From: Escherichia phage 232Ecol030PP
Sequence record: PP355090.1
Strand: one strand, 5' to 3'
DNA length: 64,000 bases
In this document: piece after piece, positions 10,216 through 37,789 of the stretch
Layout: the number at the start of each line of letters is the position of its first letter
Position numbering within the stretch: position 1 is the first letter of the stretch
Notes under the pieces: generated by a model
The model's database searches: none
The model's input: only the letters and a program-made list of their open reading frames with translations
What the model was told of the DNA's origin: nothing
Position numbers and translations under genes: made by a program

Positions 10216-10686
10216 TTAATCATGTGTCCACACCCCATCGGTATTTGACCAAAGCCGCTGATTATCTGATCCTCTCCACAGCTTTTTGGTCGGAAGATTT
10301 TTCTCATACTTCCCATCAATAATAACATCAACATATTTAAGCATTTCTAGTTGTTTAATATCTTCAAACTTATATCCTGTCCACAACCAAATGCTTTTAT
10401 TTGGATAAAGATTTTTTACTGTTTGAACAATGCAATGAATAACATCTCGATTATCAGGATAGAGAGGGTCTCCTCCAGTTATAGTTAATCCTTCTATATA
10501 ATCATTATTCAAACATTCAATTAATTGTTCTAGTGTTTCACCAGTGAATGGAATACCATTTCTAGCATTCCATGTTGATTTATTATAACACCCTTCGCAT
10601 TTATGCAAACAACCTGTAACGAAAAGAACGACCCTGCAACCAGGGCCATTCACAAAATCGCAAGGATAAAATCTATCATAATTCAT
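10216..10686 (-). CDS. nrdG: anaerobic ribonucleotide reductase activating protein NrdG (radical SAM)
   Basis: 156 aa with CxxxCxxC cluster (GCLHKCEGC); ATGA overlap with nrdD stop. Confidence 0.9.
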   Translation of the reverse strand: MNYDRFYPCDFVNGPGCRVVLFVTGCLHKCEGCYNKSTWNARNGIPFTGETLEQLIECLNNDYIEGLTITGGDPLYPDNRDVIHCIVQTVKNLYPNKSIWLWTGYKFEDIKQLEMLKYVDVIIDGKYEKNLPTKKLWRGSDNQRLWSNTDGVWTHD

Positions 10687-12500
10687 TGATGCTTAACCCT
10701 ATGCATGATTTCTTTATTTTTGCCGAGATTAAATCCGCGTTCGTTCGGATTTCCCAAATAACCACATGTTCTTCTTATTGTATTCATCTTTTTAGGATCA
10801 GTTTCTCCACAAATAGAACAAACAAATCCGTTTTCAGTAGGAGTCATTTCATGGGTACTTCCGCATGTAAAACATTTATCCACTGGCATATTAACACCAA
10901 AATAATCTAAATGTTGTGCAGCATAATCCCATACGGCCTCAAGACCTTTCAAGTTATTTTTCATATCAGGAAGTTCAACATAAGAAATGTGACCACCTGT
11001 CGCAATGAAATGATATGGCGCTTCACGAGAAATCTTTTCAAACGGAGTAATATTTTCTTCTACTGAGACATGGAAACTGTTAGTGTACCAGCCTTTATCG
11101 GTAACATCTTTTACACTTCCATATTTTTCTGTATCGAGTTTACAGAAGCGATAACAAAGGTTTTCAGCAGGAGTCGAATATAAACTAAAAGCAAATCCGG
11201 TTCTTTCAGTCCACTGTTTAAGATGAGCATTCATTTTAGTTAAAATTTCTCGTCCAATATCACGACCGACAAGAATATTCAATTCGTGAATACCAATGTA
11301 TCCTAAAGACACTGAACTTCTACCGTTTTTAAATAACTCAATTATATCGTCATCAGGTTTAAGACGAACCCCAAATGCACCTTCTTGGTAAAGAATAGGA
11401 GCAACAGTAGCTTTAACTCCTTTTAAGGAACTAATTCTACACATCAAAGCTTCAAAACATAAATCCATTCGTTCATTGAACAATTCAACAAATTTCTGTT
11501 CATTGAACTGTGTTCCAATATAAGAATCTAACGCGATGCGAGGAAGATTCAGTGTTACAACACCAAGATTATTACGTCCATCAAGAATTTCATTACCAGT
11601 CGAATCTTTCCATACGCCCAAGAAACTACGGCAACCCATTGGAGAAACAGGAACAGATGAACCAGTGATAGCTTTATTGTTCTTAGCTGAAATAATATCA
11701 GGATACATCCTTTTGCTTGCACACTCTAGAGCAAGCTGCTTAATATCATAGTTCGGATCGTCTTTATAAAGATTAACACCTTCTTCAACGAACATAACAA
11801 GCTTAGGGAAAATAGGAGTTATTCCATCACGACCAAGACCTTTAATACGATTTTTCAGAATTGCTTTCTGAATCATTCGTTCAGTCCAGTCAGTTCCTGT
11901 ACCAAATGTAATTGTTACAAAAGGTGTTTGTCCGTTTGAACTAAAGAGAGTATTTACTTCATATTCATAAGCTTGGAATGCATCGTATACATCTTTTTCT
12001 GTTTTAGATTGAGCATAATTCAACGCATCAGCGATTTGCCATTTTTCTGCATCCTCAATATGTTTTGCATAGGTGCGTTTAACATAAGGAGAAAGTACTT
12101 TATCGACATTAGCAAATGTAGTTCCGCCATACTGGTGAGAAGCAACCTGTGCAGTAATTTGTGCCATAATTGCAGTAGCAACACCGATTGATTTAGGAGT
12201 TTCAATCTGTGCATTACCAAGCTTAAATCCGTTCTCAAGCATTCCTTTTAAATCTACTAAACAACAATTAGTAAATGGAAGAGCAGGGGAATAATCAATA
12301 TCGTGGAAATGGATAATTCCGCTTTCATGCGCTTTCATAATAAAAGACGGGACCATATTTTTGGCAATGTGTTTAGACACAATACCAGCCATAAGGTCCC
12401 GTTGAGTTGGAAAAACACGAGAATCTTTATTAGCATTCTCGTTTAAAAGGTCTTTATTAGTTTTATGAATCAATCCTTCAATTTCTTTTTCAATTGTCAT
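10683..12500 (-). CDS. nrdD: anaerobic ribonucleoside-triphosphate reductase NrdD, uninterrupted (no intron)
   Basis: 605-aa continuous ORF ending with glycyl-radical motif RTCGYLG and C-terminal Cys cluster. Confidence 0.92.
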   Translation of the reverse strand: MTIEKEIEGLIHKTNKDLLNENANKDSRVFPTQRDLMAGIVSKHIAKNMVPSFIMKAHESGIIHFHDIDYSPALPFTNCCLVDLKGMLENGFKLGNAQIETPKSIGVATAIMAQITAQVASHQYGGTTFANVDKVLSPYVKRTYAKHIEDAEKWQIADALNYAQSKTEKDVYDAFQAYEYEVNTLFSSNGQTPFVTITFGTGTDWTERMIQKAILKNRIKGLGRDGITPIFPKLVMFVEEGVNLYKDDPNYDIKQLALECASKRMYPDIISAKNNKAITGSSVPVSPMGCRSFLGVWKDSTGNEILDGRNNLGVVTLNLPRIALDSYIGTQFNEQKFVELFNERMDLCFEALMCRISSLKGVKATVAPILYQEGAFGVRLKPDDDIIELFKNGRSSVSLGYIGIHELNILVGRDIGREILTKMNAHLKQWTERTGFAFSLYSTPAENLCYRFCKLDTEKYGSVKDVTDKGWYTNSFHVSVEENITPFEKISREAPYHFIATGGHISYVELPDMKNNLKGLEAVWDYAAQHLDYFGVNMPVDKCFTCGSTHEMTPTENGFVCSICGETDPKKMNTIRRTCGYLGNPNERGFNLGKNKEIMHRVKHQ

Positions 12501-30133: not shown

Positions 30134-30399
30134 TAGTATTTTTCCTCTGGTTGGAACACAGCACGACAAGCCCACATACTGGCTTCTTTGAGTTTCGTTT
30201 TAGCAATAGCTAACTGATCGAGGCTTTCAGCATAATTCTTCGCGAGTTCAAAGTCTTCGCAATTATCTAGTGCTTCCCAGAATTCATCATATAAAGCATC
30301 AAAGATAAGTCCTAAACGAACTTCAGCGTCTTTAATAGCATTTACTTTACCGATTTTTTCGTCGGTATGTGGCTTATAACCTTTAATATCTTCAATCAT
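30133..30399 (-). CDS. hypothetical protein at the vs.4 position (candidate Acb2-like cyclic-oligonucleotide sponge)
   Basis: ATG at 30399 with GAGGAAG RBS (track start is TTG); fourth ORF downstream... position after regB matching T4 vs.4. Confidence 0.45.
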
Positions 30400-30613
30400 A
30401 TTTGACTTCCTCACCAGTACATAAATCGTATTCAACTAAACGAATAGGTTCATGAATGCCATATCCCTGAACAGAAATTTCTGTCGTAGGATAAATTCCA
30501 CTAATATCACCCATATTCCACGCTTCATTAAATTGCTGTTCGCCTGAATTACTAAACCACTCGGCGAAAGCATTTAGCACATCTTCAGAACCTTCAATAA
30601 TTATCTTTGCCAT
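30392..30613 (-). CDS. hypothetical protein
   Basis: 73-aa ORF, ATG start. Confidence 0.5.
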   Translation of the reverse strand: MAKIIIEGSEDVLNAFAEWFSNSGEQQFNEAWNMGDISGIYPTTEISVQGYGIHEPIRLVEYDLCTGEEVKYD

Positions 30614-30975
30614 TACAAACTCTCGGTGAAGGTACGAGCGATAACGTCGCGCTGCTGTTCCGGAGTCAGAGAGTTAAAGCGAACTGCATAACCGGATACA
30701 CGGATGGTCAGCTGCGGATATTTTTCCGGATGCTTAACTGCATCTTCCAGAGTTTCACGACGCAGAACGTTAACGTTCAGGTGTTGACCACCTTCAATTT
30801 TAACTGTAGGCTGTTGCTCAATTTCAATTTCACGGGCATGCAAACCATAGAAAATTTCTGGGTCTACAAAAGAGTCCTCTTTAAAGGTTTTAGAGACAAT
30901 AATTCGTGCTTGAATACCATCTTCAAAATAAATAGTACCTTTATGTGTGCCTTCAAGAATTTGATATGCTTTCAT
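30613..30975 (-). CDS. autonomous glycyl radical cofactor GrcA (YfiD)-like protein
   Basis: C-terminal ~60 residues ([60 protein letters not shown]) match E. coli GrcA as recalled, including glycyl-radical motif RVSGYAV. Confidence 0.8.
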
Positions 30976-30981
30976 ATAACC

Positions 30982-31311
30982 TCAATTAGAAAATAAATTT
31001 ATCCAAGATTGTTCTTTAATTAAAAATGGCTCAGAATCATATGCCATTAAACTCTGTGTGATTAGTCCTTTAAAAGGCCCATCAATAAATTCCATGGTAA
31101 AATATGGAATTTTATTCATTAGCCGTGCATTAGGAGCCGTGCACAAAACTCTGCATCCTTTGAATACGCCTTTTTGTAATTTGTATTGCTTGGGATAAAA
31201 TTCGCTCAAAATGTTATTTTTTGCCAAAATTTCAAAATGATTCACCAATTTATTTTTAATAGTTTTTGGCGAAAAATAAAGATATTCGAAAAGCTGAGTG
31301 TCTGTCATCAT
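30982..31311 (-). CDS. hypothetical protein
   Basis: ATG at 31311 overlapping upstream stop (ATGA). Confidence 0.45.
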   Translation of the reverse strand: MMTDTQLFEYLYFSPKTIKNKLVNHFEILAKNNILSEFYPKQYKLQKGVFKGCRVLCTAPNARLMNKIPYFTMEFIDGPFKGLITQSLMAYDSEPFLIKEQSWINLFSN

Positions 31312-31847
31312 TGCATTCCGATTACGAAAAACTGTGGACGAGTAATACCACCAATGCAACATTTAATATTACAGCAGCAGTGTACAGTGTCAATATGGAC
31401 ACTATAAATCTTATCCATATCAGGAGATTTGACAGGCTCATCAATTATATACAAAATTCGCGAAAGTGATAAACCTCTGAACTTGCTTCCTTTATTACCA
31501 ATAAAACTGCGCACAGAATCAGTAAATAAACGAAAACGTATATCATCATTAGAATAACGCGAAAATTCCTTTTTAATATTATCTGCGGAAATTTTAGCGT
31601 AAGCTGAAGTATTAGAAAGAACAATAACTGTTCCACCGTCATACAACCAATTAGCGGCAAAATTAGTTACTGCAGTTGATTTACCAGATTGACGCCCACC
31701 ATCTAGTCGAAGTGTACAATACTGTTTAAGTAAGTCTTCAAATGGCGGGATATATTCGTTTTTACAAATTTCTTCTACTCTAGCATCAGAATGGTGTGTA
31801 AAAGCATTCATCAGGGATAGATAAGGACCAGTTAAAAATGTTCTCAT
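31308..31847 (-). CDS. hypothetical protein with P-loop-like motif
   Basis: 179 aa containing GGRQSGKST. Confidence 0.5.
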   Translation of the reverse strand: MRTFLTGPYLSLMNAFTHHSDARVEEICKNEYIPPFEDLLKQYCTLRLDGGRQSGKSTAVTNFAANWLYDGGTVIVLSNTSAYAKISADNIKKEFSRYSNDDIRFRLFTDSVRSFIGNKGSKFRGLSLSRILYIIDEPVKSPDMDKIYSVHIDTVHCCCNIKCCIGGITRPQFFVIGMQ

Positions 31848-31993: not shown

Positions 31994-32410
31994 TTAAATG
32001 TAAATATTTTTGCCGTAATACTTATACCAGTGTGGCTTCATTAAAATTTTTTCATCGAGTCGTTGTTGACTCAACTTAATAGCTGATTTGCATGGATTAT
32101 AATCATTTTTCCATTCTACTGGAATATCGCTGATGTCAGGAACTTCAGTATCTTTTATACTGAACCCGCGTTTTAAGCATTCCGTTATAATGTCCGATTG
32201 ACGCTTTCGCAAAAATTCTAACTTATCGTAAAAGAAAGTAACATGACCAGAACCTAAAATAAATTTAGAAGATATTTTAAAATCTTTAACGCGCTTACCG
32301 TTTGCCACATGCTTACGAACTATACCAAAAACACGCGGCAATTCACGGTATTCTGCGATTAAATGTTGATCAGCAAGTTCAGATACTAAAGTCAAATTAA
32401 TACGAGTCAT
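31994..32410 (-). CDS. denV: endonuclease V (pyrimidine dimer DNA glycosylase) DenV
   Basis: 138 aa [17 protein letters not shown]...; recognised as T4 DenV. Confidence 0.9.
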
Positions 32411-32469: not shown

Positions 32470-33000
<531 letters not shown>

Positions 33001-37614: not shown

Positions 37615-37689
37615 TGGCGGACGTGATAGGATTCGAACCTATAACCAATCGCTTAACAGGCGATCGCTCTGCCATTGAGCTACACATCC
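37615..37689 (-). tRNA. tRNA-Asn (anticodon GTT)
   Basis: Acceptor GGATGTG/CACGTCC (one G-U), anticodon stem ATCGC/GCGAT, loop CTGTTAA, T-loop TTCGAAT, CCA. Confidence 0.7.
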
Positions 37690-37693
37690 AAAT

Positions 37694-37780
37694 TGGTGGG
37701 GAGTGATGGAGTCGAACCACCCGAGTCGCAATGACAATGGATTTACAGTCCACACCGCTACCTCTACGGGATAACTCCCC
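37694..37780 (-). tRNA. tRNA-Tyr (anticodon GTA), class II with long variable arm
   Basis: Acceptor GGGGAGT/ACTCCCC, anticodon loop CTGTAAA, variable arm TGTCATTGCGACTCG, T-loop TTCGACT, CCA; architecture like bacterial tRNA-Tyr. Confidence 0.6.
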
Positions 37781-37789
37781 AAATTAATT

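Follow-up and report, generated by a model that had tools for sequence, protein, structure and literature searches.

The vs.6 gene of a T4-like Escherichia phage joins a diverged phage-type GrcA N-terminal half to a host-identical glycyl-radical domain

The minus-strand gene at 30613-30975 of the window (the whole 64,000-nt stretch of Escherichia phage 232Ecol030PP, record PP355090.1, that was analyzed) is, judged by sequence and gene order, the ortholog of T4 vs.6, which encodes the protein Y06I. We consider it very likely that the gene product is a Y06I-type spare part for pyruvate formate-lyase (PFL) and that the gene is an old phage homolog of grcA whose 3' half was converted by host DNA. 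Neither the gene nor its biochemical function is new to science. What is new is the recurrent, host-specific conversion of vs.6, a modest, clean evolutionary observation. The features referred to below are as follows.

30613-30975, - strand: vs.6 (Y06I) coding sequence, a 120-aa GrcA-like autonomous glycyl-radical cofactor (ATG-started ORF, Pfam match, and match to T4)
30629-30797, - strand: host-identical patch of vs.6, gene nt 179-347, residues ~60-116, the glycyl-radical domain (alignment to grcA)
30798-30975, - strand: phage-type 5' half of vs.6, residues 1-59/60, AT-rich, a diverged GrcA N-terminal homolog conserved in T-even phages
30613-30628, - strand: phage-type 3' tail of vs.6 (final 5 codons and the stop codon), which departs from E. 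coli at five synonymous sites
30682-30702, - strand: RVSGYAV glycyl-radical motif, vs.6 residues 92-98
30691-30693, - strand: codon of the radical glycine Gly95 of vs.6 (equivalent to GrcA G102 and PflB G734 by alignment)
30980-30983, - strand: GAGG Shine-Dalgarno sequence of vs.6, set 4 nt ahead of its ATG and sharing bases with the stop codon of vs.7 (read from the sequence)
10216-10686 and 10683-12500, - strand: nrdG and nrdD, respectively (Pfam), context outside the vs.6 element

T4 vs.6 was originally named ORF 63.1 and lies in the 58.3- to 65.5-kb early region. The gene in the window matched it (X04567) with 98.3% nucleotide identity over 363/363 nt, and 118 of the 120 residues of its product are the same as in T4 Y06I. 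The segment is T4-like (Tequatrovirus): lysozyme e, denV, regB, vs, and tk flank vs.6 as in T4, and the gene order (e/denV ... vs.8-vs.7-vs.6-vs.5 ... regB, vs) is that of T4. In T4 X04567, DalCa, RB3, and Mosigvirus records, vs.6 likewise lies in the denV-regB early region, flanked by vs.7 and vs.5. Over 14 kb around the gene, several T-even phages of Escherichia and Yersinia are 99.3 to 99.6% identical to this one, and more than 740 phage records contain vs.6 at >80% coverage. The labels in these records vary (vs.6, autonomous glycyl radical cofactor, pyruvate formate-lyase). The last of these, used in some records, is a misnomer, since vs.6 matches only the last ~63 residues of PflB. Identical or near-identical vs.6 proteins were also found in entries filed as bacterial, namely MBI9930117.1 and HAX4052694.1 (both E. 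coli) and ENP1742976.1 (Salmonella). Their contigs measure 165 to 169 kb and evidently are T-even phage genomes within bacterial assemblies. A 60-aa fragment in the vs.6 protein cluster is labelled Enterococcus faecalis and lies on a 410-bp contig.

The vs.6 stop codon overlaps the start codon of vs.5 (TAATG, with base 30613 common to both), and the GAGAG ribosome-binding stretch for vs.5 sits inside the 3' tail of vs.6 (30613-30628). The T4 record X04567 annotates the rRNA binding site of the downstream ORF within the terminal codons of vs.6. A scan for promoters and terminators around vs.6 gave a signal no better than that in shuffled sequence. At a cut-off of E <= 0.001, Pfam matched none of the neighbors vs.5 (30392-30613), vs.7 (30982-31362), and vs.8 (31308-31847). 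The program-made list of ORFs further contains a 129-aa ORF antisense to vs.6 (30607-30996, + strand), which is almost certainly not a gene. Further along, lysozyme e (32470-32964) and denV (31994-32410) adjoin with a gap of ~60 bp; ipIII and ipII, which separate e from denV in T4 (X04567), are absent at that position here and in DalCa.

An earlier note on this DNA had proposed that the product is an autonomous glycyl-radical protein of the GrcA/YfiD type, and domain analysis bears this out. Pfam Gly_radical (PF01228) matched residues 60-101 with an E value of 2.5e-18, and no second domain was found. The best NCBIfam match was GrcA (TIGR04365; E = 1.2e-45), aligned from residue 20, and the best match in the PDB was YfiD (6OWR; E = 9e-42), followed by the PflB C terminus (697-759). 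The protein has the hallmarks of a spare part, being small and stand-alone (~14 kDa) with a glycyl-radical domain, and the RVxG[FY] radical motif is present as RVSGYAV with its glycine kept (the corresponding radical residue of GrcA is numbered G102 in PMC12338860). The ~760-aa catalytic barrel and active-site Cys-Cys pair of full-length PFL or TdcE are lacking. Because its N-terminal half is divergent, vs.6 scores 154.9 bits against TIGR04365, below the equivalog cut-off of 170 bits (E. coli GrcA scores 233.9). In view of this sub-cut-off score, the product is best called a phage GrcA homolog of the Y06I type, rather than a bacterial GrcA equivalog. It is not a pyruvate formate-lyase.

Alignment with E. 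coli GrcA (L001:402-785) revealed that the gene is a mosaic. BLASTP gave 74/100 identities, and residues 61-120 were the same as GrcA 68-127 at 60/60 positions, RVSGYAV and Gly95 included, as the earlier note had stated for the C-terminal ~60 residues. The same agreement with the host was found in the DNA: gene nt 179-347 are identical to E. coli grcA at 169/169 positions, the preceding 178 nt at only 43.8% (contrast between the halves, Fisher p = 4e-38), and the last five sense codons contain five synonymous differences. Codon usage follows the same division: the GC3 of the patch (0.44) is like that of E. coli grcA (0.43), and the GC3 of the 5' half of vs.6 (0.20) is in the range of neighboring phage genes (0.20 to 0.28). 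The patch was matched at 95 to 99% in all 5426 complete E. coli genomes searched. Within its 156-nt core, vs.6 differs from grcA at 0 positions in E. coli, 12 in Citrobacter, 19 in Klebsiella, and 28 in Salmonella; over the 169 nt, Citrobacter grcA differs at 12 to 14 sites, and the E. coli and Enterobacter genes differ from each other at 24/156 core sites. At the divergences of other hosts or of nonconverted phage homologs, a perfect 169-nt run has a probability of 1e-6 to 1e-19. The lack of any difference from E. coli over 169 nt supports the view that the C-terminal half was derived from the host recently. A megablast search of the 64 kb against the 5426 E. coli genomes found no other host-like DNA beyond the grcA patch and weak tRNA matches. 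The tRNA region (37629-37783) was 82 to 90% identical to tRNA-Tyr/tRNA-Thr genes on ~264 E. coli plasmid records.

The 5' half had been described in the earlier note as phage specific. In composition and in its low nucleotide identity to grcA it is, although a profile-profile comparison (hhalign) of the phage N-terminal half with that of bacterial GrcA gave an E value of 8.2e-6 over 46 columns at 33% identity. We read it as a diverged GrcA N-terminal half and not as unrelated phage sequence. Among T-even phages it is under purifying selection (dN/dS, 0.1 to 0.3). Moreover, same-position orthologs in Cronobacter phage Pet-CM3-4 (Karamvirus) and in Klebsiella phages Lemur_ER36 and GWPR59 (Slopekvirus-like) combine a similar N-terminal half with a 3' half that has diverged from every host gene compared, with 23 to 41 differences per 156 nt, which implies that a full-length phage copy predates the conversion. 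The simplest account is a three-step history: full-length grcA would have been captured anciently by a phage, the phage copy would have diverged for a long time and become AT adapted, and E. coli chromosomal grcA would then have replaced its 3' half by homologous recombination (gene conversion). The tract starts at the Ile60/Glu61 codons, the point where phage-host homology begins, and ends 16 nt before the stop codon. Its right limit falls just before the ribosome-binding region and start codon of vs.5, and this double role of the 3' tail is a plausible reason for the phage version having been kept there. The direction of transfer is read as host to phage, because the patch has the composition of the host and because bacterial grcA is conserved across Enterobacterales and sits beside ung in E. 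coli.

Two other origins for the mosaic were weighed. That no recombination took place, with the identity due to extreme purifying selection or codon constraint or else to an assembly or contamination artifact, is barely conceivable. The protein sequence of the radical domain is indeed highly conserved across homologs, but the identity in vs.6 covers all synonymous sites over 169 nt, and Enterobacteriaceae grcA genes encode the same or nearly the same peptide despite 12 to 28 differences in 156 nt. Moreover, the T4 sequence of the 1980s (X04567) already shows the mosaic, as do hundreds of independent genomes. On these comparisons, chance or purifying selection cannot explain the 169-nt identity, and the identity at synonymous sites, the switch of GC3 to a host-like value in the patch, and the divergence of the bacterial orthologs effectively refute a reading without recombination. 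The other possibility is a fresh capture, in which the 3' part of host grcA was recently joined to a phage ORF of other descent, so that the N-terminal half has no kinship to GrcA. The abruptness of the switch in identity at gene nt 178/179 and the AT-rich, phage-like N-terminal half would both suit such an event. We nonetheless consider it improbable: the N-terminal halves align by themselves at the profile level, the TIGR04365 alignment begins as early as residue 20, and the Karamvirus and Slopekvirus orthologs join the same N-terminal half to a host-diverged 3' half. Hence, of the recent host capture proposed in the earlier note, the recent arrival of host DNA in the 3' half stands, and capture of the gene itself gives way to conversion of an older phage homolog.

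The E. coli patch and its left breakpoint are common to T4, RB3, pSe_SNUABM_01, phiE142 (Carettavirus), and three Mosigviruses, with 0 to 5 substitutions in the patch interior; the right edge varies slightly among T4, RB3, pSe_SNUABM_01, phiE142, and the phage studied here. The 5' half of vs.6 is 10.7% different between this phage and a Mosigvirus, but the patch core has only 4/156 positions that differ, indicating that the patch is younger than the split between the genera or has been renewed or exchanged since.

A second case was found in T-even phages of Klebsiella. KPV15 (Jiaodavirus according to its record) and the similar phages PhiKR8 and Roth01 encode the peptide LLDAVEH instead of LEDAVKH. 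Metagenome contigs were scanned with a 38-mer from the 3' half of the Klebsiella-phage gene, and 26 loci were recovered, 24 of them on bacterial contigs (53 to 58% GC) and 2 on phage contigs of ~166 kb. The bacterial contigs encode a 127-aa GrcA that equals Swiss-Prot GRCA_KLEP7 (Klebsiella pneumoniae) exactly in 22/24 cases; two more have one residue different, and one gene is truncated. The vs.6 homolog of one phage contig, L103, was 99.2% identical to those of cultured Klebsiella phages. Runs identical to Klebsiella grcA extended over 158 consecutive nt in L103, 140 nt in KPV15, and 101 nt in Roth01, and they begin at the Glu61 codon, which is the left breakpoint of the E. coli patch. In the 156-nt core, L103 has 0 differences from Klebsiella and the phage studied here has 0 from E. 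coli, whereas the two hosts differ at 19 positions. In the 5' half, the phages group together (56 to 99% identity) and show 38 to 50% identity to all bacteria. Such a contrast between the halves is the classic signature of recombination. The replacement from Klebsiella grcA is therefore judged to be independent of the E. coli case, and it is well supported that there were two or more recombination events with grcA, in each of which the donor was the host of the phage concerned. Equally well supported by the alignments is a recurrent, host-specific pattern in which E. coli-infecting Tequatrovirus, Mosigvirus, and Carettavirus phages appear with the E. coli patch and Klebsiella T-even phages with the Klebsiella patch.

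The KPV15 homolog (NC_055715; L085:401-762) spans 362 nt. It lacks one base near codon 43 and is annotated as two short coding sequences. Since its close relatives PhiKR8 and Roth01 are intact, the deletion marks either a pseudogene or a sequencing error. Among the phages compared, Karamvirus Pet-CM3-4, the Slopekvirus-like Lemur_ER36 and GWPR59, Cronobacter phage S13, Aeromonas phage Riv-10, and T5_ev219 had no host-identical stretch relative to the host grcA genes compared, from every one of which they differ at 24 to 55 positions. The 5' halves of Lemur_ER36 (L087:401-763) and Kp_GWPR59 (L088:360-722) are 82% identical, and their 3' halves, of the Klebsiella/Salmonella type (LLDAVEH) in Lemur_ER36 and of the E. 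coli type (LEDAVKH) in GWPR59, have 24 to 33 differences from any host gene compared. These 3' halves may be eroded older conversions, or their donors may lie outside the compared set. No Salmonella-identical patch was found among the phages of the collection, the best match being <95%, and Tequatroviruses isolated on Yersinia (PYps14T) and Salmonella (pSe_SNUABM_01) bear the E. coli patch.

GrcA-like genes are widespread beyond the T-even coliphages: ~1500 phage records have one, several hundred of them from T5-like phages of Salmonella and E. coli. Examples are T5_ev219 (L089:320-688), Cronobacter phage S13 (L096:115-486), Aeromonas phage Riv-10 (L097:117-485), and the Yersinia jumbo phage fHe-Yen9-04 (H80). 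Their N-terminal halves have no sequence relation to that of the T-even phages. The C terminus of the T5 type (…TREQQNDVISRTFTQAM) seems to resemble that of PflB (…TKEQQQDVITRTFTQSM) more than it does GrcA, a hint that the genes were captured separately.

The proposed function of vs.6 is drawn from work on the T4 protein and on E. coli YfiD/GrcA. Passages of PMC8683613 and PMC13450708 attribute to Wagner et al. (2001; pmid 11444864) the finding that PFL activating enzyme (PFL-AE) puts a glycyl radical on both YfiD and T4 Y06I and that the activated proteins bind oxygen-cleaved PFL, whereupon activity returns. The two proteins are presented in these passages as the only validated spare parts for glycyl-radical enzymes. 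By analogy, the spare-part function published for Y06I, which is two residues away, may be extended to this variant. The host radical-SAM activase PflA (PFL-AE) would install a glycyl radical on Gly95, the activated 14-kDa protein would dock on host PFL whose C-terminal radical domain had been removed by oxygen, and the conversion of pyruvate and CoA to acetyl-CoA and formate would be restored. As T-even phages shut off host expression, host GrcA presumably would not be replenished and the phage would supply its own copy, so that PFL stays active when infection proceeds under low or fluctuating oxygen. The output of PFL would be ATP, via acetyl-CoA, plus formate for the phage class III ribonucleotide reductase NrdD. 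A passage of PMC13450708 describes the N-terminal region of YfiD as important for efficient radical installation by PFL-AE, so the different N-terminal half of the phage protein could change its partner or its kinetics.

Other roles were considered for the protein. The earlier note had pointed to nrdD and nrdG in the same genome (10216-12500), and both genes were confirmed by Pfam (Fer4_12/Radical_SAM for nrdG; NRDD plus Gly_radical for nrdD). Its suggestion of a repair or activation link, with vs.6 serving as a spare radical domain for oxygen-cleaved phage NrdD or as a substrate of NrdG, fared less well and strikes us as very unlikely. Besides the presence of both genes, it could draw on the speculation, in a passage of PMC8683613, that repair by GrcA-like proteins might in some cases extend to other glycyl-radical enzymes. 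However, BLASTP detected no similarity between vs.6 and phage NrdD (best E value, 2.7), the radical domain is 100% that of E. coli GrcA and close to PflB 697-759, and a passage of PMC8683613 reports that Y06I is activated by PFL-AE and complements cleaved PFL. Repeated overwriting by host grcA also would keep vs.6 matched to host PFL and PflA, not to a phage enzyme. The candidate role as NrdG substrate or NrdD repair part thus found no support. An opposite role, in which vs.6 would be a decoy that competes with PflB or GrcA for PflA, or that blocks PflB, and so redirects host metabolism, seems just as far-fetched. Its N-terminal half is unlike that of host GrcA, a region that in YfiD affects the efficiency of activation (passage of PMC13450708), and purifying selection on this half in phages implies some phage-specific function. 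An inhibitor, though, could do without a radical domain of exactly the host type and without its glycine, and Y06I is reported, in a passage of PMC8683613, to restore cleaved PFL in vitro.

With vs.6 acting as a PFL spare part, its link to NrdD is probably metabolic, through formate, rather than physical: PFL is a source of formate, and formate is described in a passage of PMC4493059 as the reductant of class III reductases, including the subclass of the T4 enzyme. PFL kept alive after a pulse of oxygen would feed both ATP production and anaerobic deoxynucleoside triphosphate synthesis. For infection in the gut, the chain would run from vs.6 to PFL kept running, to formate, and to the anaerobic ribonucleotide reductase of the phage.

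The DNA of T-even phages is modified, and these phages break down the chromosome of their host. The 169-nt patch, the sole stretch in the 64 kb that resembles the E. coli chromosome, together with its equivalent in the Klebsiella phages, shows that these virulent phages do recombine with the host chromosome at places of homology. The pattern further suggests that a domain which docks in host PflB and is recognized by host PflA stays host-like. A broader proposal would be that T-even phages keep the radical domain of vs.6 matched to the host by repeated copying from the host chromosome, as an adaptive and undescribed form of coevolution. We hold this as a whole only tentatively and think it somewhat less probable than its negation. 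Whether the conversions were selected is uncertain. Selection for compatibility with host PflB/PflA is possible yet unproven, in view of the E. coli patch on Yersinia and Salmonella phages, the missing Salmonella patch, the unconverted groups, and the difference of only two residues between the two host peptides (LEDAVKH in E. coli and LLDAVEH in Klebsiella). The pattern would be explained adequately as well by neutral conversion at any place where homology permits it. If adaptive, the patch would fit host PflB/PflA down to the two residues at which the hosts differ. If true, the proposal would describe coevolution by gene conversion in strictly virulent phages and offer a natural marker for measuring the flow of DNA from host to lytic phage. 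It likewise is uncertain that the conversions are unreported: no paper describing the vs.6/grcA mosaic was found in the literature covered, and the 2001 primary paper and a 2003 T4 review are outside this coverage, so an earlier mention is possible.

Compared with known systems, the gene is closest to that for T4 Y06I, with which it has in common the flanking genes, the host-identical patch, and the left breakpoint. The proteins differ at two residues, P54 in T4 versus Q54 here and H73 in T4 versus R73 here (E. coli also has R73), and the host-identical stretch of T4 is ~9 nt longer at the 3' end (TTT ACT GAA, as in E. coli, versus TTC ACC GAG). With E. coli GrcA/YfiD (P68066; nuclear magnetic resonance structure, 6OWR), vs.6 has the C-terminal 60 residues and 169 nt in common, as well as the radical motif with its glycine and, by analogy, the role of a PflB spare part. 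In contrast, the N-terminal 59 residues are ~33% identical, vs.6 is 7 residues shorter, and E. coli grcA lies at the bacterial ung-grcA locus, whereas vs.6 lies in a phage cluster with translationally coupled neighbors. The C-terminal glycyl-radical domain of PflB (~697-759; 1H16) and TdcE have the domain and motif of vs.6 (E = 5e-26). Unlike PflB, vs.6 is without the catalytic barrel and without Cys418/Cys419, being only the detachable radical domain, and its DNA is nearer to grcA than to pflB.

A parallel exists in cyanophages, in which intragenic recombination between host and phage in photosynthesis genes (psbA) was reportedly described by Zeidner in 2005 and Sullivan in 2006. There, a host-derived metabolic gene of T4-like phages swaps segments with the host copy to yield mosaics, as in vs.6. 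The vs.6 case differs in that it concerns enteric T-even phages, in that it comprises a single short patch bounded by the ends of homology, and in that the patch appears to have arisen independently with the E. coli and with the Klebsiella alleles.
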